Assembly (NCBI GenBank): GCA_001778695.1
Contig: MFHU01000003.1
Location: forward strand, 1,521-65,520
DNA length: 64,000 nucleotides
Origin: Candidatus Giovannonibacteria bacterium RIFCSPHIGHO2_12_FULL_44_22
GTDB lineage: Bacteria; Patescibacteriota; Minisyncoccia; UBA11713; 2-01-FULL-45-33
Direction of reading: 5' to 3'
Positions 2,456-52,319 of the stretch are shown here, piece by piece; positions within the stretch are counted from its first letter, which is position 1, and each line of letters begins with the position of its first letter. The notes beneath the pieces are model-generated. The model was not told the DNA's origin. It did not search any database and was given only the letters and a program-made list of their open reading frames with translations. A program made the position numbers and the translations under genes.

Positions 2456-2725
2456 GTGCTTGCTAGAATGGAGACAATGAGCAATATTCATTACAACTTG
2501 TTTTTACTGCCAGAACCAGAGGGCGGATTTACCGTTGTTGTTCCTGCTTTACCCGGTTGTGTTACTTATGGTAAAAACCTTGCCGAAGCCAAGAAAATGG
2601 CGGCTGACGCGATAAAGGGTTATGTCGCCAGTCTTCGCAAGCACCGAGAATCTATTCCATTGGACGACAGTTTTATAACTTCCATTAATTTAAACTCGCC
2701 TTCTAAAGTTCCAGCGCATGCCTAG
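2456..2725 (+). CDS. hicB: HicB-family antitoxin
   Basis: N-terminus HYNLFLLPEPEGGFTVVVPALPGCVTYGKNLAEA matches the HicB/UPF0150 fold. Overlaps the downstream hicA. Confidence 0.75.
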   Translation: MLARMETMSNIHYNLFLLPEPEGGFTVVVPALPGCVTYGKNLAEAKKMAADAIKGYVASLRKHRESIPLDDSFITSINLNSPSKVPAHA

Positions 2726-2942
2726 GTTGCCGTCTTTATCGCCCAAAAAGATTATAAAAATTTTAAAACAGCATGGCTTCCAGTTGGATCATACTACGGG
2801 AAGCCATTTTATTTTCTACAACCCAGAAACCAAAAAGAGGACGACTGTTGCCTATCATGCCAAAGAACTTCCTCGCGGCACTTTGATTTCTATACTCAAA
2901 CAAACCGGAATTTCAACAGAAAATTTAGAAAAAGCTAAATAA
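2718..2942 (+). CDS. hicA: HicA-family mRNA interferase toxin
   Basis: 74 aa with KILKQHGF...TGSH...AYHAKELPRGTLISILKQTG, the HicA/YcfA signature. Confidence 0.8.
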   Translation: MPRLPSLSPKKIIKILKQHGFQLDHTTGSHFIFYNPETKKRTTVAYHAKELPRGTLISILKQTGISTENLEKAK

Positions 2943-3005
2943 AAAAAGCCCCGCGCGGTTTTACCAGGTAGGGCTATTGGGGTGACCCTTTGCGCATAAC
3001 AGCTA

Positions 3006-3224
3006 TCAATACTTGGACGTGGGGTGAAGCCTTCTGATGTAGAAATGATGATAATCAATATTTTTATCAGCTCGCTCCCAATAGCCTGCGCCAGGCACAT
3101 ATCCCATTTCTTGAGAAAGATGGGTTGTTGCCTCTTCTTCAGAATTAAAAGGTCCAATACACACTATCCTATCATCGGATACTAAAATATGCATAGGTTT
3201 CTCCTTCTCCCCATATGATAGCAA
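3006..3224 (-). CDS. hypothetical small protein
   Basis: 72-aa ORF in an otherwise empty interval. No recognisable motif or ribosome-binding site. Confidence 0.2.
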   Translation of the reverse strand: MLSYGEKEKPMHILVSDDRIVCIGPFNSEEEATTHLSQEMGYVPGAGYWERADKNIDYHHFYIRRLHPTSKY

Positions 3225-3276: not shown

Positions 3277-4872
3277 ATGGTCAAAAAATACAAGCCAGTT
3301 ATTTTGGTGGTGCTGGATGGGTTTGGGGTGAATGTTGGAAATCCGGAATCAACTTGGAAGCATGCCAAGATGCCAACTTTTCGCGAATTGGAAAAATTTT
3401 TTCCATTCACGACTCTTCAAGCCTCCGGGATCGCGGTGGGTTTGCCATGGGGCGAAGAAGGAAATTCCGAAGTGGGGCATTTAACCCTAGGCGCGGGCAA
3501 ACCCCTGTATCATCATCTGCCGAGAATCATCACCTCCATTCACAACGGGTCTTTTTTTCAAAACCGGGCTTTTTTGGACGCGGCGGATTTTGTAAAAAAA
3601 GGGAATGGAAAAATGCACTTGATGGGGCTTTTTTCTTCGGGTTCTGTGCACGCTTATATTGACCACCTTTACGCGCTTTTAGATTTTTGCAATGGCCAAA
3701 AAGTAAATCAAGTATATCTGCATCTTTTCACTGACGGTAAAGACGCTCCGACAAAAGAAGCAGGTTTATTTTTAAAGCAATTAGATGAACGGCTCGCGGC
3801 CAAATATCCATTTGCCAAAATTGCGACTGTAGCCGGCAGATATTTTGCTTTGGATAGAGATGAAAATTGGGACAGAATTGAAAAATTTTACAAATGCCTA
3901 ACTTTGGGCGAAGGCGAAATTTTTAAAAACGCCCCCGATTACGTTGAGGCGTCTTATGGAAAAAATATCACAGACGAATTGATTCCGCCGGCGTCTTTGG
4001 GCTCCAAAGAAGGCCGGATTGAAGCAGGGGACGCGGTGATTTTTTATAATTATAGAGAAGACTCGGAGCGGGAGCTGACCTCCGCTTTTGTTTTAAATAA
4101 TTTTTCCGGATTTTCAAGGGAAAAAATAAATAATTTGTTTTTTGTGACTATGACGGAGTACGACAAGCGTTTTCCGGCGGAGGTGGCTTTTCCGCCGATG
4201 GACATAAGCTGGCCACTTGCGCGGATAATTTCCGAGGCCGGGCTGAAACAGCTCCACATTGCCGAGACCGAAAAATACGCGCATGTCACTTATTTTTTTA
4301 ACGGCGGGCGGGAAATTCCCTATCCGGGCGAGGAGCGTATTTTGATACCTTCTCCGAAAACGGCGCGCTTTGACCAAACACCGGAGATGTCGGCCGCCAA
4401 AATTACGGACACGGTTCTGGAAAACTGGGACAAGTATGATTTTATTCTGGTGAATTTTTCCAACGGCGACATGGTAGGGCACACCGGAAATTTTGACGCT
4501 ACCGTGAAAGCCGTTGAGGCGCTAGATTTTTCCATCGGGAAAATTATTTTAAAAATTTTAGAAGCTGGCCCGCCTAGACTCGGCGAGGCTGGCGGAGCGA
4601 CGATTATAACGGCCGACCACGGCAATGCGGAAGATAAAGTTTATTCGGCTTCGGGCGAGAAGCGCACCAAGCATACCGCCAATCCAGTGCCGTTTTTTGT
4701 GGCTAGCGCGGATTTAAAAAGCCAAAAACCTCGGCCGGACAACGAAATTTTCTCGCGCTATATGGAGGTGAAGGGCGTGCTCGCCGACATCGCGCCCACG
4801 GTTTTATCTTTGATGGCGCTCCAGCAACCCGCCGATATGTCCGGCGTGAATTTACTTCCGAAGATTTTATAA
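3277..4872 (+). CDS. gpmI: 2,3-bisphosphoglycerate-independent phosphoglycerate mutase
   Basis: 531 aa. N-terminus PVILVVLDGFG...NSEVGHLTLGAGKP and C-terminus ITADHGNAE are hallmark iPGM motifs. Contains an in-frame GC-rich repeat (see repeat at 4567..4599). Confidence 0.9.
   Translation: MVKKYKPVILVVLDGFGVNVGNPESTWKHAKMPTFRELEKFFPFTTLQASGIAVGLPWGEEGNSEVGHLTLGAGKPLYHHLPRIITSIHNGSFFQNRAFLDAADFVKKGNGKMHLMGLFSSGSVHAYIDHLYALLDFCNGQKVNQVYLHLFTDGKDAPTKEAGLFLKQLDERLAAKYPFAKIATVAGRYFALDRDENWDRIEKFYKCLTLGEGEIFKNAPDYVEASYGKNITDELIPPASLGSKEGRIEAGDAVIFYNYREDSERELTSAFVLNNFSGFSREKINNLFFVTMTEYDKRFPAEVAFPPMDISWPLARIISEAGLKQLHIAETEKYAHVTYFFNGGREIPYPGEERILIPSPKTARFDQTPEMSAAKITDTVLENWDKYDFILVNFSNGDMVGHTGNFDATVKAVEALDFSIGKIILKILEAGPPRLGEAGGATIITADHGNAEDKVYSASGEKRTKHTANPVPFFVASADLKSQKPRPDNEIFSRYMEVKGVLADIAPTVLSLMALQQPADMSGVNLLPKIL
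4567..4599. repeat. GC-rich motif CCCGCCTAGACTC...GGCGAGGCTGGCGG inside gpmI; same motif family as at the clpP 3' end
   Basis: Direct sequence match of a 13-mer plus downstream CGAGGCTGNCGG with 6732..6782. Encodes the extra peptide EAGPPRLGEAGGA just upstream of the ITADHGNAE motif. Confidence 0.6.
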
Positions 4873-4881
4873 AAATTAATT

Positions 4882-5160
4882 TTACGAAATTTTGGAGTCG
4901 ACGTACGAGGGGAGCCAGTCCATCAGTTTTTTGCGATGTTTATCTATTGACCATTCGTCGCCGCGTTTAAAAAGCGTCGGGTGCAGAACCTGAAATTCTT
5001 TCAATATTTTTGCCGATACCTTGGGAAAATCCAAAGGAACGCTCTTGTTGTAAGATTCCATAAAATTCGCGAGGGTTGTCGTGTTTTGATTAAGCTCCAG
5101 TTCGCGGTCTTTTTTGCTTCTCATATTTTTAATCCTAGCGCGAATCAATATAAAAAGCAA
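4882..5160 (-). CDS. hypothetical protein
   Basis: ORF of about 80-92 aa. The likely start is an internal Met (MRSKKDRELE...). No known domain recognised. Confidence 0.3.
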   Translation of the reverse strand: MLFILIRARIKNMRSKKDRELELNQNTTTLANFMESYNKSVPLDFPKVSAKILKEFQVLHPTLFKRGDEWSIDKHRKKLMDWLPSYVDSKIS

Positions 5161-5166
5161 GTTTTA

Positions 5167-5238
5167 TGGGCGTTGTAGGGATTGAACCTACGACCTTCTC
5201 GGTGTAAACGAGACGCTCTGCCACTGAGCTAAACGCCC
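5167..5238 (-). tRNA. tRNA-Val (anticodon TAC)
   Basis: Reverse complement GGGCGTTTAGCTCAGTGGCAGAGCGTCTCGTTTACACCGAGAAGGTCGTAGGTTCAATCCCTACAACGCCCA folds as a cloverleaf. Anticodon loop TTTACAC. Confidence 0.8.
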
Positions 5239-5252
5239 GTATATTTTATTTT

Positions 5253-5324
5253 TGCCGCGGGGCAGAATCGAACTGCCGACGCCATCCTCTTCAGGGATGC
5301 GCTCTGCCACTGAGCTACCGCGGC
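5253..5324 (-). tRNA. tRNA-Phe (anticodon GAA)
   Basis: Reverse complement GCCGCGGTAGCTCAGTGGCAGAGCGCATCCCTGAAGAGGATGGCGTCGGCAGTTCGATTCTGCCCCGCGGCA. Anticodon loop CTGAAGA. Confidence 0.85.
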
Positions 5325-5372
5325 AAGCAGTACCACTCCAGCGTAAAAATATATTAGCAGAATTGACCAATC

Positions 5373-6569
5373 TTGGCAAAAAGGATAAGATATTTTCAGA
5401 GGAGACAAAATATGTTTAAAGAAAAAACTGGGTTGTCTGCAATATCGCTTTTTTTGTGTGAAATTAAACAAATTCCTTTGTTGGGCAAAGAGGGAGAGAT
5501 CGCGGCATTCGTAGAGTTGGAAAAAGCAAAAAACGTTTTGTTTAAAAAAGCTCTTTTTCTAAAGCCCGTTCGCGAACAGATGCTCTTTGATTTAAAAAAT
5601 TTTGTTTTGGGTAAGAGCCATAATTCTCGTCCAAAAACGGATGAGGATAAAGATAATATTCGCACCGATCTTAATGCGGCTAAATCGCTCTTTAAGAAAA
5701 TTAGCGGAACTCGCAAATCTTTATGGTGGAATATTATTCAGAATTCCGGAGTTTATTTTTCTCTCTGTAAACTTGAGCGGTGGATTAGCGGTTTGAAAGA
5801 TCAAAATCTTTTTTCGGACGAGCTTGCTATGGTAACCGAAATCAGAAACCGTATAATGAAAGCTAATTTAAGGTTAGTGGTTGATATTGCCAAATCTTAT
5901 CCAGCAAATTCATCTATAGATTTTTTGGATAAAATTAACGAGGGGAACATCGGGCTCATGAAAGCCGTCAGCATGTTCAATCTCTCTCTTGGCTATAAGT
6001 TTAGCACTTACGCTGTGTGGTGGATAAAGCAGTCAATTATTCGAGCTCTAGTTGAAAAAGGCCATGTAATCAGGATTCCAGTGAATAAGGCGCAAGAGAA
6101 AAGTAAAATTTCCCGAGTTTTTCTTGCTTTGGCTCAAAGTTACGGTCGCGAGCCCACCATGGTGGAACTGGCCAAAAAACTTAAGCGGTCTCAAAAACAG
6201 ATTGCGGAAGTTCTGGCAATAGTAAAAGATCCATTTAGCTTAAATGATCCTATTGAGGATGGCGAAGGCGCGGCCGAATTCATTAATATTATAAAAGACA
6301 AAATAACACCTCCACTAGAAGACTCTACGGAAGAAAAAGAGAGAATGGAACTTGTAAACTTGGCGCTGCGCGAGCTTCCGCCACGAGAAGAAATTATTTT
6401 ACGGATGCGTTTCGGAGTCGGATGCAATTATGATCATACCTTGGAAGAAGTGGGAAAAAGTTTTCATATGTCACGTGAACGGGTCAGGCAAATAGAAAAA
6501 ACAGCAAAGAGAAAACTGAGATACCGATTACTTCGCAGAGGAATCCGTCCCAAAGCATTATTTATGTGA
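5373..6569 (+). CDS. rpoD: sigma-70 family RNA polymerase sigma factor (primary-like)
   Basis: Region 2 (LRLVVDIAKSY...NEGNIGLMKAVSMFNLSLGYKFSTYAVWWIKQSI) and region 4 (TLEEVGKSFHMSRERVRQIE) present. Atypical N-terminal 100 aa. Confidence 0.85.
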   Translation: MAKRIRYFQRRQNMFKEKTGLSAISLFLCEIKQIPLLGKEGEIAAFVELEKAKNVLFKKALFLKPVREQMLFDLKNFVLGKSHNSRPKTDEDKDNIRTDLNAAKSLFKKISGTRKSLWWNIIQNSGVYFSLCKLERWISGLKDQNLFSDELAMVTEIRNRIMKANLRLVVDIAKSYPANSSIDFLDKINEGNIGLMKAVSMFNLSLGYKFSTYAVWWIKQSIIRALVEKGHVIRIPVNKAQEKSKISRVFLALAQSYGREPTMVELAKKLKRSQKQIAEVLAIVKDPFSLNDPIEDGEGAAEFINIIKDKITPPLEDSTEEKERMELVNLALRELPPREEIILRMRFGVGCNYDHTLEEVGKSFHMSRERVRQIEKTAKRKLRYRLLRRGIRPKALFM

Positions 6570-6642
6570 TCTCCGAAAAAATATGAACGCCGGTCCCCCG
6601 GCGTTTTTCTATTTGTGAGTATTTTGTTAGCATACATTTATC

Positions 6643-6714
6643 GCGCCCATAGCTCAGTGGTAGAGCGTTTGCATGACACGCAAAAGGCCTGAGGTTCGAT
6701 CCCTCATGGGCGCA
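6643..6714 (+). tRNA. tRNA-Val (anticodon GAC)
   Basis: GCGCCCATAGCTCAGTGGTAGAGCGTTTGCATGACACGCAAAAGGCCTGAGGTTCGATCCCTCATGGGCGCA. Anticodon loop ATGACAC. Confidence 0.85.
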
Positions 6715-6731
6715 AAAATTATTTTTTAGAA

Positions 6732-6782
6732 CCCGCCTAGACTCCCGTCTAGACTCGACGAGGCTGACGGCGAGGCCGGCCG
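6732..6782. repeat. GC-rich repeat CCCGCCTAGACTC (duplicated) ...CGAGGCTGACGGCGAGGCCGGCC at the clpP 3' end
   Basis: Shares a 13-mer and the downstream CGAGGCTGNCGG with gpmI 4567..4599. Contains the internal tandem CTAGACTC x2 and a GGCCGGCC palindrome. Supplies the clpP C-terminal tail and stop region. Confidence 0.6.
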
Positions 6783-7408
6783 TTTTTGGAATTTTTTCCG
6801 AGAGCGTTTTTGGATTTTACGATTTCGTCAATAACGCCGTATTTTTTGGCTTCGTCTGGATCCATATAAAAATTTCTGTCGGCGTCTCGGTCTATCTGGG
6901 AAAAGGGCTGCTTGGTATGGTGCGCTAAAATTTTATTTATTTTTTCCTTAACATGCACGATGTGCTTGGCGTCAATCGCGATATCCGAAGCCTGCCCTTC
7001 GGAGGCGCCTAAAACCTGATGAATCATAATCTCTGAATTAGGCAGAGCGTATCTTTTCCCCGCGGTGCCTCCGGCCAAAAGTATAGCAGCGCCCGAAGCC
7101 GCGAAGCCGACGCAAAGAGTCGCCACATCCGGCTTGATGTGCTGCATTGTGTCATAAACCGCGAGTGTCGCCGAAACAGAGCCTCCAGGAGAATTAATAT
7201 ATAAATAAATATCCTTTTTAGGGTCCTGCAATTCCAAAAACAAAAGCTGGGCAATAATGGTATTAGCCACGGGGTCTATAATGGGGCCGCCCAAAAAAAC
7301 AATGCGGTCCTTGAGCAATCTGGAATAAATGTCGTAGGCGCGTTCGCCGAACTGTTCTTTTTCAATGACCGTTGGGATTAAATAGGTGTTATACATTTCG
7401 TCTTCCAT
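6749..7408 (-). CDS. clpP: ATP-dependent Clp protease proteolytic subunit
   Basis: Core [17 protein letters not shown]...INSPGGSV...MIHQVLGA motifs. Start chosen at the internal Met ([16 protein letters not shown]); the longer ORF to 7507 is less likely. C-terminus carries a basic extension, [16 protein letters not shown], encoded by a GC-rich repeat. Confidence 0.88.
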
Positions 7409-7503
7409 AAAATTTATACTAACAAAAAGCATTTGTGGTTTCAAGGCGTAATATTTTTTAAATAAAAAAGGGGCGCTGATTTCAGCAACCCCGCGAATCC
7501 GTT

Positions 7504-7788
7504 TCAATCTTCATTATCGCCGATCTCAACAAAGAAGCTTCCATCATGAGTTCGGCTAAGAAAAATCGCCTGTCCACTTTCTGTTTTAAGAATCAAGGTT
7601 CCCGGATTACGCCGAGAGAAGAAACTTTCGACCAACAAGGGCGTATTTTCTCCGTCTGTTTTTCGGCCCTCCGCTAAATGGTTTCTGACCTGGCCCTCAA
7701 CAACTCGTCCAATCATTTTTCTCATTATCTTTCTCCTCCTTCCTTCGCAAAATTTTATAAAAATCTCTAATGAACTCAGCTCGTCCAC
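7504..7788 (-). CDS. hypothetical protein
   Basis: ORF of 94 aa, or about 73 aa from the internal [11 protein letters not shown] start. No domain recognised. Confidence 0.3.
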
Positions 7789-11095: not shown

Positions 11096-11172
11096 CTAGC
11101 CCCCTCTTACATTAAGAGGGGGAATTTTCTCCCCCTTAGAGTAAGGGGGATTAAGGGGGTTACTCCCCCGCG
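11096..11172. repeat. three consecutive G5/C5-stem hairpins spanning the nusA stop codon
   Basis: CCCCCTCTTA-CAT-TAAGAGGGGG; TCCCCCTTA-GAG-TAAGGGGGA; GGGGG-TTACT-CCCCC. No adjacent T-tract. Candidate REP-like element or unconventional terminator. Confidence 0.5.
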
Positions 11173-29471: not shown

Positions 29472-30509
29472 TCATAATTTTAGATTTCCGTCAGCTCTGA
29501 TAGTTTTGGGATTTTTTGAGAATTTTTTAGCTTTGAAACGATAATATCCCGCCACGGCGATCATCGCGGCATTATCGCCGCAAAGCCAGAGAGGGGAGAT
29601 ATAAAGCGAGATTTTGGGGAATGATTTTTTGATCATATTTTCCAAAGCCGAGCGGAGTTTTTTGTTTGCGGCAACGCCTCCGCCGACAACTAACGATTTT
29701 GATTTATATTTTCGCAAAGCATCGCCGGTTTTTTTAACCAAAACATCAACCACGGCTTGCTGAAATTCGTTGGCTACGGCTGATTTATCGGCGTTGGGGT
29801 TATCCCGAAGATAATAAAGAACGGCGGTTTTGAGTCCTGAAAAACTAAAATCAAAATCACTGGAATTAATCATCGGGCGAGGAAATAATCCCTTACCCGA
29901 GGTTTTCAATCTCTCCGCCAATTTTGAAATCAAAGGCCCGCCCGGGTAGCCAAGCTTCAACATTCTCGCTACTTTATCAAATGCTTCGCCGGTGGCGTCG
30001 TCTCTAGTTTCTCCCAAAATTTTATAATCTAGATGTTTTTTCATTAAAACCAATTCCGTATGCCCGCCGGAGACGATTAGGGCAATAAGCGGAAATTGAG
30101 GAGATATGCGTCGGAGCCAGCTCGCATAAATATGCCCTTCCAAATGATTTACCGGGACCAGCGGAACACGCCATTTTTTTGCCAAGTCCTTCGCAAAATT
30201 GATTCCCTCCCAAAGCGCCGGCTCCAAGCCTGGGCCCGAGGTTACGGCTATCGCGTTGAACTTAGACGTCCGACGTCCAAGTGGACGTCGGACGTCTTTC
30301 ATAACCCGCGCGAGAATTATCGGCAGATTTTTTCTGTGTTCTCTCATCGCCAAATTTGGCACTACTCCTCCGAATGGCTTATGTATTTTTATCTGCGACA
30401 AAACTTGATTGGAAAGCAAATTAAACTTAGGTGAATTTTGTTTTTCGCTTATTTCCAAAACCGCGATTGCCGTCTCATCGCAGGATGTCTCAATAGCTAG
30501 GATTTTCAT
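29472..30509 (-). CDS. tsaD: tRNA N6-adenosine threonylcarbamoyltransferase
   Basis: MKILAIETSCDETAIAVL N-terminus, His pair, AIAVTSGPGL motif. Contains the in-frame repeat at 30258..30296. Confidence 0.9.
   Translation of the reverse strand: MKILAIETSCDETAIAVLEISEKQNSPKFNLLSNQVLSQIKIHKPFGGVVPNLAMREHRKNLPIILARVMKDVRRPLGRRTSKFNAIAVTSGPGLEPALWEGINFAKDLAKKWRVPLVPVNHLEGHIYASWLRRISPQFPLIALIVSGGHTELVLMKKHLDYKILGETRDDATGEAFDKVARMLKLGYPGGPLISKLAERLKTSGKGLFPRPMINSSDFDFSFSGLKTAVLYYLRDNPNADKSAVANEFQQAVVDVLVKKTGDALRKYKSKSLVVGGGVAANKKLRSALENMIKKSFPKISLYISPLWLCGDNAAMIAVAGYYRFKAKKFSKNPKTIRADGNLKL
30258..30296. repeat. palindromic repeat ACTTAGACGTCCGACGTC-CAAGTG-GACGTCGGACGTCT inside tsaD
   Basis: GACGTCCGACGTC and its reverse complement GACGTCGGACGTC separated by 6 nt. 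Encodes the extra peptide around DVRRPLGRRTSK, next to the conserved AIAVTSGPG motif. Confidence 0.75.
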
Positions 30510-30634: not shown

Positions 30635-31294
30635 ATGGAAATTATTTACGAAGATAAAAATCTTATCGCCCTAAATAAACCGGCTGGGGCGAATTTTGAT
30701 TGGGCACTGAAGGAAAAGCCAGAACTTTTGCCCATCCATAGATTGGATAAAGACACTTCCGGGATTATTCTTTTCGCGAAGAGCGAAAAGACGCAAGAGT
30801 ATTTGAGAGAACTTTTTAAAAATCATAAAATCAAAAAAACTTACAAGGCGCTGGTTGTTGGAAATATAAAAAATAATACGGGAGTGATCGATTTAGCAAT
30901 CGGACGCTCCAAAAAAACTCCACTAAAGCGTGTGGCGATAGGAGAGCAACGCGGAAAAATTCGCGAAGCAATAACGGAGTACAAAGTGCTGAAAAGATTT
31001 AACGGACGTCCGACGTCCACTTGGACGTCGGACGTCCAAGTGGGATTCACGCTTATTGAAGCTTATCCAAAAACTGGTCGCACCCATCAAATTCGTTCGC
31101 ATTTTTCCGCGATCGGGCATCCGATAGTTTGCGACAAGCTTTATGCTGGAAAAAAGTTTATCTGCCCCGCCGGGCTTACTCGTCAATTCCTGCACGCCTA
31201 TGCCATAGAATTTAATTTACAAAACGGCTCTCGATTAAGGCTCGAGGCCGATTTGCCGGAGGATTTGAAAAAAGTTTTAGATATGTTATCTTAA
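30635..31294 (+). CDS. RluA-family pseudouridine synthase
   Basis: LIALNKPAG, HRLDKDTSGIILFAKS (catalytic Asp), KTGRTHQIRSHF. Start moved to the Met after the tRNA. Contains the in-frame repeat at 31004..31044. Confidence 0.85.
   Translation: MEIIYEDKNLIALNKPAGANFDWALKEKPELLPIHRLDKDTSGIILFAKSEKTQEYLRELFKNHKIKKTYKALVVGNIKNNTGVIDLAIGRSKKTPLKRVAIGEQRGKIREAITEYKVLKRFNGRPTSTWTSDVQVGFTLIEAYPKTGRTHQIRSHFSAIGHPIVCDKLYAGKKFICPAGLTRQFLHAYAIEFNLQNGSRLRLEADLPEDLKKVLDMLS
31004..31044. repeat. palindromic repeat GACGTCCGACGTC-CACTTG-GACGTCGGACGTC-CAAGTG inside the rluA-family gene
   Basis: Same 13-mer pair as in tsaD, plus flanking CACTTG/CAAGTG inverted hexamers. In-frame peptide GRPTSTWTSDVQ. Confidence 0.75.
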
Positions 31295-44615: not shown

Positions 44616-44639
44616 GCAACCCTCCTCGCGGAGGGTTGC
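44616..44639 (+). terminator. stem-loop after the NYN gene (terminator-like, no T-tract)
   Basis: GCAACCCTCC-TCGC-GGAGGGTTGC perfect 10-bp stem. Confidence 0.4.
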
Positions 44640-50242: not shown

Positions 50243-51148
50243 ATGAATAAAAAACTTTTAGCTTTTCTGATATTTTTGGCTTTGGGGGCTTACTTGATTT
50301 ACGGCAATTTTTTCAAGAACGCTCTGCCGGCAGTACCGGTTTACACTCCTAACAAGGTTGCGGAGCAGGCCAAAGACTTGCCCAAAAAAGAAGTTGCCGC
50401 CCCGCCACCATTAAAAGCCAAGAAAGAAGCGCCGACCGCCGAGATAATTTTGACTGCCGACGGAGTTTTCTTTCGGGCAAATCAAGAAAGAAAAAAAGCC
50501 GATTTGCCAGATCTGGCGCCAAATTCTAAACTTACAGCTTCTGCCTTGGCCAAAATCCGCGATATGTTTAAAAATCAATATTTCGCGCACGAATCGCCTG
50601 CGGGCAAAGGAGTCGGCGATTTGGCGGAAACAGAAGGTTACGATTTTATTTTAATCGGCGAAAATCTCGCCTTGGGAAATTTTGAAGGGGATAATGCGTT
50701 GGTGGATGCTTGGATGGCGAGTCCCGGACACCGCGCCAATATTTTGGGGAGCCGTTATAAAGAAATTGGCATCGCGGTGGGGCGGGGAATGTTTCCCGCC
50801 GAAGGCGGGTCCGCCTTTGGCGGAGAAATTCGGGAGACCTGGCTCGCGGTCCAGCATTTCGGGCTTCCGCTTTCGACTTGCCTCAAACCCGATGAAAATT
50901 TAAAAACCGGCATTGAATCTTTTGAAGCGCAGATTAAAAAATTAGGAGTTACTGCTTCGGCCCTTAAAGCCGAACTTGAATCCGAAAAACCGCAAAACAG
51001 AAACGAATACGAGGCCTATAACACCAAAGTTGAAGAATACAACGCTCTAGCTCAACAAATGAATTCTTTAATTGACCAGGTAAAGAGCATTATTCCTGTT
51101 TATAACCAGCAAATAAAAACATTCAACCAATGCGCGGGAATAAATTAA
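50243..51148 (+). CDS. secreted CAP/SCP/PR1-domain protein
   Basis: Signal/TM N-terminus. GENLALGNF...WMASPGHRANIL...YKEIGIAV is the CAP signature. Confidence 0.75.
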   Translation: MNKKLLAFLIFLALGAYLIYGNFFKNALPAVPVYTPNKVAEQAKDLPKKEVAAPPPLKAKKEAPTAEIILTADGVFFRANQERKKADLPDLAPNSKLTASALAKIRDMFKNQYFAHESPAGKGVGDLAETEGYDFILIGENLALGNFEGDNALVDAWMASPGHRANILGSRYKEIGIAVGRGMFPAEGGSAFGGEIRETWLAVQHFGLPLSTCLKPDENLKTGIESFEAQIKKLGVTASALKAELESEKPQNRNEYEAYNTKVEEYNALAQQMNSLIDQVKSIIPVYNQQIKTFNQCAGIN

Positions 51149-51743: not shown

Positions 51744-52319
51744 TTGAATATTATCATGAAACAGGTTCCGCGCGCAATGGTTTTGGGTCAAAAATTTTTT
51801 AATCGGACGGCGATTAAGGTGGCGCGGGAACTTTTGGGAAAATTTTTATGCCGCCGAGCCTCACTTAGACGTCGGACGTCTAAGTGCTATATGGTCACTG
51901 AAACCGAAGCTTATGTCGGGCCGGAAGATAAAGCTTCGCACGCGCACAGAGGAAAAACTTTGCGTAATACTCCTATGTTTGGCCCCGCCGGCCGGTGGTA
52001 TGTTTATTTTACTTACGGAATGCATTGGATGCTCAATATTGTAACCGGATCAGATGGTTATCCGGCGGCGGTTTTAATCCGTGCTCTTGGAAGTCCGACT
52101 TCCCCTGGAAGTATGACTTCCGTAGACGGCCCAGGGCGCGTTACTAAATTTTTAAAAATTGATAGGCGTTTTAACGATAAAAGGGCTGATAAAAAGATTG
52201 GATTATGGATAGAAAACCATGGAATTAAAATAAAAAAGCATAAAATTAAAAGTATGCCGCGCGTGGGCGTAGATTATGCCGGAAAATGGGCAAAAAAACC
52301 GCTTCGCTTTACTTTTTAG
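51744..52319 (+). CDS. mpg: DNA-3-methyladenine glycosylase (Mpg/AAG family)
   Basis: ARELLGKFL...VTETEAY...ASHAHRGKT...MFGP...VYFTYGMHWMLNIV...AVLIRAL. Carries two in-frame repeat insertions. Confidence 0.85.
   Translation: MNIIMKQVPRAMVLGQKFFNRTAIKVARELLGKFLCRRASLRRRTSKCYMVTETEAYVGPEDKASHAHRGKTLRNTPMFGPAGRWYVYFTYGMHWMLNIVTGSDGYPAAVLIRALGSPTSPGSMTSVDGPGRVTKFLKIDRRFNDKRADKKIGLWIENHGIKIKKHKIKSMPRVGVDYAGKWAKKPLRFTF
51862..51886. repeat. 25-nt perfect palindrome CACTTAGACGTC-G-GACGTCTAAGTG inside mpg
   Basis: Related to the tsaD and rluA units (GACGTC core, ACTTAG/CAAGTG flanks). Encodes RRASLRRRTSKC, inserted between the LLGKFL and VTETEAY motifs. Confidence 0.75.
52089..52121. repeat. GGAAGTCCGACTTCC-CCTG-GAAGTATGACTTCC imperfect palindromic repeat inside mpg
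   Basis: Same GAAGTCCGACTTC unit as in valS. Encodes GSPTSPGSMTSVDG, inserted after the AVLIRAL motif. Confidence 0.7.

Follow-up and report, generated by a model that had tools for sequence, protein, structure and literature searches.

We analyzed a 64,000-nucleotide stretch (the window; contig MFHU01000003.1, positions 1,521 to 65,520) of Candidatus Giovannonibacteria bacterium RIFCSPHIGHO2_12_FULL_44_22, in which gpmI is followed by a tRNA-Val gene and by clpP. The window has a G+C content of 42.8% and matches contigs of Rifle aquifer metagenomes, and its GpmI and ClpP proteins are closest to those of Candidatus Giovannonibacteria. The first-pass annotation had described a GC-rich repeat common to the interior of gpmI and the 3' end of clpP, and we confirmed this, down to positions and translations. 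The repeat consists of a discrete imperfect palindrome of 24 nt, CCCGCCTAGACTCGGCGAGGCTGG (hereafter the unit; window copies aligned by eye), which is present once in gpmI and as a nested pair at clpP (Table 1).

The exact 13-mer CCCGCCTAGACTC occurs at window positions 4569-4581 and 6732-6744, with a copy carrying one mismatch at 6744-6756, and the four window matches to it at 2 or fewer mismatches were reached in 0 of 100 shuffles. The second half of the unit, CGAGGCTGRCGG, reads CGAGGCTGGCGG at 4584-4595 and CGAGGCTGACGG at 6759-6770.

Table 1. Features of the gpmI-clpP region, in window coordinates
Feature	Position	Strand	Remarks
gpmI, cofactor-independent phosphoglycerate mutase	3277..4872	+	host gene; Pfam Metalloenzyme and iPGM_N
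24-nt unit, consensus copy CCCGCCTAGACTCGGCGAGGCTGG	4569..4592	+	in frame in gpmI, encodes (G)PPRLGEA(G); identical to the 120-copy consensus
tRNA-Val(GAC)	6643..6714	+	convergent with clpP
Relic of the ancestral ClpP end, TCT AAA AAA TAA (SKK and stop)	6719..6730	-	by comparison with L132, L128 and L129
Left half CCCGCCTAGACT of the outer unit, clpP 3' end	6732..6743	+	with 6768-6779 gives a 23/24 match to the consensus
Inner unit, variant CCCGTCTAGACTCGACGAGGCTGA	6744..6767	+	3 mismatches, including the paired C4>T and G23>A; centred in the outer unit
Right half CGGCGAGGCCGG of the outer unit	6768..6779	+	followed by CCG TTTTT on the + strand
clpP, longest open reading frame	6749..7507	-	last ~10 codons and stop are element-derived

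Insertions in gpmI and clpP

Among 60 aligned homologues, only the window GpmI carried eight extra residues (open reading frame (ORF) translation around the insert, ...KILEAGPPRLGEAGGATIITADHGNAE; residues spanning it, ...KILEAGPPRLGEAGGATIITADHGNAEDK). The insert had earlier been read as 13 residues long, but the flanking 'EA' and 'GGA' are ancestral, being present in all 59 aligned orthologues and in close relatives, and the true figure is 8 residues, or 24 nt. Within the 90% identity cluster of GpmI, proteins at least 99% identical were all 531 aa long and filled, while P0373 (96.7% identity) and others were 523 aa long and empty. At the DNA level, empty sites read GAA GCC GGC GGC GCG (L125, the locus with 96.7% amino acid identity), GAA GCG GGG GGT GCT (L126) and GAG GCC GGA GGA GCG (L123), and the filled window site reads GAA GCT GG[24 nt]C GGA GCG. 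Filled and empty alleles differ by exactly +24 nt; the junctions are seamless and there is no target duplication. The identical GpmI protein was found in 62 assembly blocks.

An AlphaFold2 model of GpmI (mean predicted local distance difference test score, pLDDT, 86.7) has a helix at residues 406-429 and a strand at 441-445, with a pLDDT of 69 for residues 431-440. The insert is predicted to sit in this helix-to-strand loop, 8 residues before the metal ligands D447 and H448. Its position in a pLDDT-69 loop of an otherwise confident model would account for its being tolerated. One recent insertion has lengthened a surface loop of GpmI.

At clpP the element is located between tRNA-Val(GAC) and the conserved part of the gene and has the layout A-A'-B'-B'', in which a second 24-nt unit is nested in the centre of the first. 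When the inner 24 nt are removed, the remainder matches the gpmI unit at 23 of 24 positions. The first-pass annotation had called this copy partly duplicated; two copies are indeed present, but nesting describes them better than partial duplication. The empty site of the relative L132 reads ...AAA AAC AAT TCT AAA AAA TAA, followed by tRNA-Val, and the window reads ...AAA AAC G[48 nt]GT TCT AAA AAA TAA. The insertion is therefore 48 nt long and in frame, lies four codons ahead of the ancestral stop, and made no duplication. The ClpP stop codon is now a TAG within the inner unit (CTA at 6749-6751 on the + strand), with the SKK relic still in frame downstream, so that the four residues NSKK have been exchanged for 10 element-derived ones. 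ClpP tails of relatives are variable and Lys/Asn-rich, 3-25 residues long (e.g. ...GKNSKNNSKK). Loss of only four residues from a disordered, Lys-rich tail would explain why the insertion was tolerated. The earlier proposal that the same element made both an internal insertion and a new C-terminus is thus borne out by the empty gpmI allele of a close relative, the 48 extra in-frame bases of clpP, and the use of the element's own TAG as the stop.

The true clpP start is probably internal to the longest ORF; an exact look-up of the protein from the shorter start (218 aa) returned no record. The region 6716-6800 folds into a long nested hairpin (-24.7 kcal/mol, z = -1.6). A consensus terminator scan did not call the clpP element as a terminator. 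The hairpin and the T-run behind it on the + strand may nevertheless double as the tRNA-Val terminator.

A cupin-type PGI gene from a different Giovannonibacteria genome (L065) contains this nested dimer in frame, complete with the inner variant, which indicates that the dimer behaves as a unit in its own right. L065 was also considered as an orthologous clpP locus and this was ruled out by tblastn, its host being the PGI gene. At the spot of the nested dimer, L128 (2137-2160) and L129 (89% ClpP identity) carry a different palindrome, GGCCTGCCTCGCGGCAAGACAGGC, which translates as GLPRGKTG with the ancestral SKK and stop after it; its left arm GCCTGCCTCGC is also the left arm of the outer unit in L065.

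Occurrence across genomes, host genes and orthologous sites

We scanned 185,579 species-representative genomes with the exact pattern CCGNCTAGACTCGNCGAGGC, and all copy counts given here come from the matches listed. The unit was present in at least 119 stretches of other genomes, against a chance expectation that we estimate at ~17 (18-base pattern, 596 Gb). The flanks are unrelated between loci. In an alignment of 120 copies with distinct flanks, positions 0-23 were conserved at 90-100%, and the positions that the search pattern left free were still conserved at 90-98%. Outside the unit, position -1 was G or A in 81% of copies and position +24 was C or T in 93%. We looked for a target-site motif among the upstream 5-mers and found them diverse; only the purine at -1 and the pyrimidine at +24 stood out, and GCTGG upstream of a unit mostly reflected tandem copies. 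The logo of the 120 copies begins CCCGCC... and ends ...GCTGG, with CTAG internal only. The unit folds as a hairpin on both strands, with fold z-scores of -1.3 to -1.9. T4 is found in three copies (the window inner unit, L065 and L036), each of which also has A23, and this co-variation, with the pyrimidine at +24, supports a 3-24 pairing register in which positions 3-5 of the stem pair with 22-24. An Rfam search of window 4300-7000 found tRNAs only and no family matching the unit.

The records among these matches are mostly Patescibacteria from several classes (Giovannoni-, Nomura-, Moran-, Falkow- and Buchananbacteria, Levy-, Gottesman- and Curtissbacteria, and Saccharibacteria-labelled metagenome-assembled genomes, MAGs). 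The unit was seen in one single-cell genome and in MAGs from many studies. Three high-GC matches (L005, L039 and L096) look like chance. Some records carry, as deposited, the labels Gammaproteobacteria, Bdellovibrionales, Ignavibacteriales or Bacteroidetes, which, if correct, would extend the element beyond Patescibacteria. Intact units occur in L023 (the 2.88-Mb chromosome OZ218778.1, a closed MAG), L059/L014, L010, L026 and L114, which are labelled outside Patescibacteria or come from a 2.9-Mb MAG. L019, labelled Bathyarchaeia, has flanks identical to those of a Moranbacteria contig (L068), which suggests mis-binning. No match was found among IMG/VR viral contigs, leaving a phage vector without support. 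The window holds three units at two loci; at least 12 were found in MAG223 and at least four in an 813-kb genome. In MAG223 (JAYEHH01; L006, L020, L021, L034, L042, L072, L080, L091 and L115) the unit is centred in a longer repeat, ...GAATCGCCAGCCAGAGG[unit]CTGGTCGCTCTTCGAGCGAGATTCCCG..., of which there are at least 10 copies, and this composite looks to have been amplified as a whole.

The first-pass annotation had suggested that coding-compatible repeats were spreading in this genome, and had set against this a motif absent elsewhere and a ClpP tail conserved in relatives. We found the opposite on both points. Spread therefore stands, but its scope had been underestimated, for the family is found across Patescibacteria and is not peculiar to the source genome.

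These data also bear on whether the repeat is a chance similarity of GC-rich codons, a palindrome made by slippage or template switching, or an assembly or adapter artefact. A single shared 13-mer would by our estimate be expected many times in 64 kb, and GAAGCTGG, which precedes the gpmI insert, resembles the insert's own 3' end GAGGCTGG, as a local duplication might. The gpmI and clpP copies, however, have 25 of 27 bases in common, and matches elsewhere far exceed expectation, with the positions left free by the pattern conserved between unrelated flanks. Copies are in frame and their empty sites are clean. An artefact is further contradicted by the recovery of the same GpmI protein in 62 assembly blocks and of the unit in a single-cell genome and in the MAGs of many studies. 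We regard this explanation as refuted by the number of matches, the 62 assembly blocks and the clean empty sites.

Within the set of 120 copies, 77 (~64%) were inside ORFs that span at least 120 codons, no closer than 15 codons to either end. A 24-nt insert preserves the reading frame, and four of the six frames through the unit are free of stops, so copies within genes are translated as an extra 8-residue loop. All four open frames were used, namely PPRLGEA (26 copies), PASPSLGG (28), RLDSARL (17) and SLAESRR (6), and copies occurred in both orientations. Seventy-two host ORFs matched 86 Pfam families, among them RNA polymerase beta, PGK, TsaD, RF-1/PCRF, SSB, UvrC, UvrD, TrmD, P-type ATPase and aminotransferases, and the unit was in frame in otherwise intact conserved genes that include those for GpmI, RF2, ArgRS, MsrB, RpoB, PGK and TsaD. 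Among the host loci listed, we found no convincing case of a gene split internally by either TAG-containing frame; like clpP, a few ORFs terminate at the TAG of the unit. The use of every open frame together with the lack of split genes is what indiscriminate insertion followed by selective loss of disruptive copies should produce.

Copies were solitary, directly tandem or nested, and no CRISPR-like spacer arrays were seen. Head-to-tail tandems with a period of 24 were found in L011 (three copies), L082, L092 and L033. The unit was commonly nested within other palindromes rich in GC, for instance in the CCCGCTTCGCC...GGCGAGGCGAGC family and in repetitive extragenic palindromes (REPs) of the CGTC type such as CGTCATTCC..GGGAATCCAG. 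We also asked whether the unit always lies in the loop of a longer stem, and ungapped pairing of the flanks was not above a shuffled-pair control; nesting is thus real but not general. At L092 5466-5640 (Giovannonibacteria RIFCSPLOWO2_02_FULL_45_28), two tandem units and a partial one (DPPRLGEAGPPRLGEAGPPSRG...) form an N-terminal extension that continues into Arg/Pro-rich low-complexity sequence, in an ORF of beta-lactamase fold that we take to be RNase J-like. The start codon there may be misplaced; alternatively, a new N-terminus may have arisen from the elements.

Orthologous sites were also compared in RF2 (L116, L099, L135, L150, L158, L159, L162, L163, L166, L172, L179 and L194; proteins P0241-P0360), where empty alleles read K-N/G-xYG and filled alleles read K-N-PPRLGEA-G. 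Filled and empty sites again differ by exactly 24 nt, without duplication. The insert loop, flanked by G-K and xYG, precedes the SPF motif by ~20 residues. In a survey made independently of the unit, the nearest relatives of P0241 (84-87% identity) were empty, a few more distant ones carried PPRLGEA, PPRLGKA or PSRTGEA, and ~35 of 120 had other inserts of 4-24 residues at the same site. None of 78 metagenomic orthologues collected by protein similarity had the unit; ~67 were empty and 11 had other small palindromes (TCCGCCAACTGGCGGA, CCTGCCTGCCGGCAGGCAGG and CCGCCAAAGGCGG-type). At least 6 unrelated palindromic inserts, of 4-24 residues, occupy this loop in different Patescibacteria lineages. 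The RF2 loop is a natural insertion hot spot for multiple families in which the presence of the unit is patchy, and this favours repeated gain, or gain with clean loss, over a single ancient insertion maintained by selection.

Proposed mode of spread and rival explanations

We interpret the unit as a selfish, mobile palindromic mini-element compatible with reading frames, of a kind resembling REPs and the palindromic elements of Rickettsia (RPEs), and give this reading a probability of about 0.78. Such an element would be of the copy-and-paste type. It is inserted seamlessly, without target-site duplication, and in-gene copies are translated as one of the four 8-residue loops. Other copies have landed head-to-tail or inside the loops of other palindromes, which accounts for the tandem arrays and nested dimers. 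The 48-nt dimer at clpP entered the tail in a stop-containing frame and so supplied the new stop. Copies that fall in either stop frame or where an insert is not tolerated are presumably removed by selection.

Several observations weigh against this reading. Orthologous hosts that are 65-83% identical carry the unit at the same codon with 100% identity while flanking synonymous sites have diverged, whereas decay would be expected of a selfish insert under neutrality; these pairs were picked up with an exact pattern, so that identical units are favoured. Degenerate copies are rare in the loci, the number of copies per genome looks low (three units per 64 kb, at least four in one 813-kb genome), and the fold z-scores are modest. 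The genes resembling REP-associated tyrosine transposases (RAYTs), found in seven loci, are 1-5 kb away from the unit and have different hairpins of their own as flanks, and it is hard to see how enzymes that are only 30-40% identical could go with a near-identical unit in distant lineages.

The invariance could mean that selection maintains the unit as a functional site in DNA or RNA (a protein-binding, parS-like or uptake-signal-like site, or a regulatory or terminator hairpin) whose presence in genes is incidental. Nucleotide identity at orthologous positions amid diverged synonymous sites (L059/L014, L078/L102/L107, L099/L116 and L082/L016), the scarcity of decayed copies and the conservation over several classes of the Candidate Phyla Radiation (CPR) would all fit such a site, as would the clpP copy, which is in a terminator position after tRNA-Val and is followed by TTTTT. 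This nested hairpin on the + strand does resemble an intrinsic terminator, but a hairpin with a T-run was seen only at the clpP/tRNA-Val copy; the gpmI copy and most others lie inside ORFs and have no T-run. The gain in gpmI is recent. In RF2 the unit is patchy, being lacking in the closest relatives of P0241 and in the 78 orthologues that were sampled without bias. The orthologous pairs of host genes that share the unit were found by exact match, which favours identical copies. A functional site also fits poorly with the occurrence of the unit in either orientation and in four frames across 86 unrelated protein families, with tandem and nested copies, and with the lack of an Rfam match. The RF2 and clpP sites hold quite different palindromes in other genomes, so that what is common is the site and not the sequence. 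Density argues the same way; DNA uptake sequences are 9-12 nt long, occur about once per kb and arise by point mutation, whereas the unit is found at two loci in 64 kb, far below that density, and comes as 24-nt insertions. We consider a selected functional site quite improbable.

As to how the proposed mobile element would move, we prefer, tentatively, mobilization in trans on single-stranded DNA by a hairpin-recognizing HUH/Y1-type (RAYT/IS200-like) enzyme, a hypothetical step that would explain the seamless insertion, the clean empty sites and the preference for extruded hairpin loops. HUH enzymes, as in IS200/IS605 and TnpA-REP, insert hairpins seamlessly. That such an enzyme moves the unit is possible, though the odds are against it. 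Directly upstream of gpmI, two loci with 91.6% GpmI identity (L126 3246-3917 and L127 1256-1927) have a gene for a 223-aa RAYT-like protein (PF01797, Y1_Tnp), and homologues occur in six further unit-bearing loci (L095, L061, L049, L097, L118 and L066). These genes carry the motifs YHxxxR...LMPNHFHL...YIHxNP. In the window, the corresponding region upstream of gpmI (2456-3224) has a HicA/HicB pair and small ORFs.

The unit could then be the cognate REP of these Y1 transposases, in a classical REP-RAYT system. Y1_Tnp genes were present in 6 of ~119 loci of 8 kb, against 1-2% estimated for random placement, in addition to those that adjoin gpmI in L126/L127, and seamless hairpin insertion is typical of HUH enzymes. 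No Y1 gene was flanked by the unit, however, and each had its own repeat (GGGTTGGAAGCTAGATAACCCTCCGGGTTGCTTAGGTT in L049, GTTC(A/G)AGTTTTGACA in L126/L127). We did not find a Y1 gene within the 64-kb window. REPs associated with RAYTs carry a GTAG tag that the unit does not have, and the unit is invariant while the enzymes are only 30-40% identical. The RAYT-like Y1 protein was rejected as the cognate enzyme on the flanking repeats, and a classical REP-RAYT relationship seems doubtful to us.

A stronger proposition would be that one 24-nt sequence stays near-invariant across Patescibacteria classes, and possibly in Ignavibacteriales-, Bdellovibrionales- and Gammaproteobacteria-labelled genomes, while moving in and out of essential genes. 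We think this unlikely. If true, the unit would be the smallest known autonomous-looking mobile DNA, and either a conserved host machinery would recognize the exact hairpin or there would be continual horizontal spread at the community level, for example through a CPR lifestyle of DNA uptake. Taken with the RF2 and ClpP hot spots, it would amount to a general, undescribed process by which palindrome insertion remodels CPR housekeeping proteins.

Known repeat families and other palindromes

A search of the literature accessible to us for the unit sequence on both strands, and for in-frame palindromes in CPR, returned nothing specific. The closest parallels are RPEs, which, as Ogata and colleagues reportedly described in 2000, lie in frame in functional genes, including those for DNA replication and repair, and are translated as extra surface segments. 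To our knowledge, the mechanism by which they transpose is not known, a question that has been open since 2000 and beyond study in culturable systems. The unit is like them in being a palindrome in frame in intact conserved genes and in sharing one reduced genome with several other families. It differs in length (24 nt versus 100-150 bp for RPE-1) and in host phylum, RPEs being confined to Rickettsia whereas the unit is near-identical across Patescibacteria classes and perhaps beyond. An informal comparison showed no sequence resemblance between the two.

The GC clusters of yeast mitochondria (e.g. the optional var1 cluster) and the 'byp' elements are likewise short GC-rich palindromes that spread in an AT-richer genome and are tolerated in coding sequence. 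These are organellar and eukaryotic, however. The GC clusters generate short target duplications, and ribosomes bypass the byps, whereas the unit is seamless and is read through in frame. Miniature inverted-repeat transposable elements are 70-300 bp long, with the terminal inverted repeats of an insertion sequence and a target-site duplication; the unit has 24 nt and no duplication. Its copies do not form the spacer arrays of CRISPR repeats.

REPs are 20-40-nt sequences of the GTAG and CGTC super-families, and some lie within genes, replication and repair genes among them (Di Nocera et al. 2013, PMC3733652). Some families are common to several phyla, CGTC REPs occur in 5 phyla without a known transposase, and Rickettsia RPE-4 and RPE-6 are CGTC-4 and CGTC-1 REPs (PMC3733652). 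The unit is, like a REP, a GC-rich imperfect palindrome of 20-40 nt that forms a stem-loop; both often lie at 3' ends of convergent genes and form dimers or clusters, and the unit may, as REPs are, be dispersed within genomes. The logo of 120 copies, however, shows no unpaired terminal tag, be it GTAG or CGTC (the latter going with a CCA-like tail), the unit is ~64% intragenic whereas REPs are predominantly extragenic, and it is the shorter. It forms head-to-tail tandems and centre-nested dimers, not head-head dimers, and, in contrast to REP-RAYT and REPIN systems, was not found flanking any of the seven RAYT genes checked in the loci. In the CPR loci that hold the unit, CGTC-type REPs (TGTCATTCCCGCGAAAGCGGGAATCCAG-like) are also present, and their loops sometimes contain a nested unit. 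We class the unit as a REP/RPE-like element outside the named families.

The system is a tractable case for the question left by RPEs, offering a tiny, sharply defined element, clean filled and empty alleles in one aquifer population, at least 119 genomic stretches and candidate enzymes nearby. When CPR genomes are annotated and their proteins modelled, extra 8-residue loops, changed C-termini and spurious extensions of ORFs (the ClpP tail, for one) should be read as derived from elements and not as features of a lineage. The RF2 loop and the ClpP spot, which have been colonized repeatedly by different palindrome families, provide a natural map of insertion-tolerant sites in essential proteins.

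A hairpin scan showed that several further palindrome families are inserted in frame in the window. One of them, (GA)CGTCCGACGTCC-AAGT-GGACGTCGGACGTC, occurs at 30260-30297, 31004-31041 and 51849-51886 and has the layout of CGTC REPs (CGTC tag, 8-bp stem, 4-nt loop). It is in frame in a TsaD-like ORF (KDVRRPLGRRTSK), an RluA-like ORF (GRPTSTWTSDVQV) and an Mpg-like ORF (CRRASLRRRTSKC), and its core GACGTCGGACGTC was also present in L013. Further small GC-rich palindromes lie at 50796-50823, 44616-44639 and 11100-11150. These include CCGCCGAAGGCGGGTCCGCCTTTGGCGG, in frame in a 304-aa ORF (PAEGGSAFGG), GCAACCCTCCTCGCGGAGGGTTGC, which is exactly 24 nt long, and a pair of CCCCCTCTTA..TAAGAGGGGG-type hairpins. 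Relatives of these small families occupy the RF2 hot spot in other genomes.

The tRNA-Val(GAC) gene has itself changed orientation relative to clpP, being convergent with it in the window and in L128 and co-directional in L132 (1001-1075). The breakpoints of this inversion are at the self-complementary ends of the acceptor stem, GCGCCCAT...ATGGGCGC.

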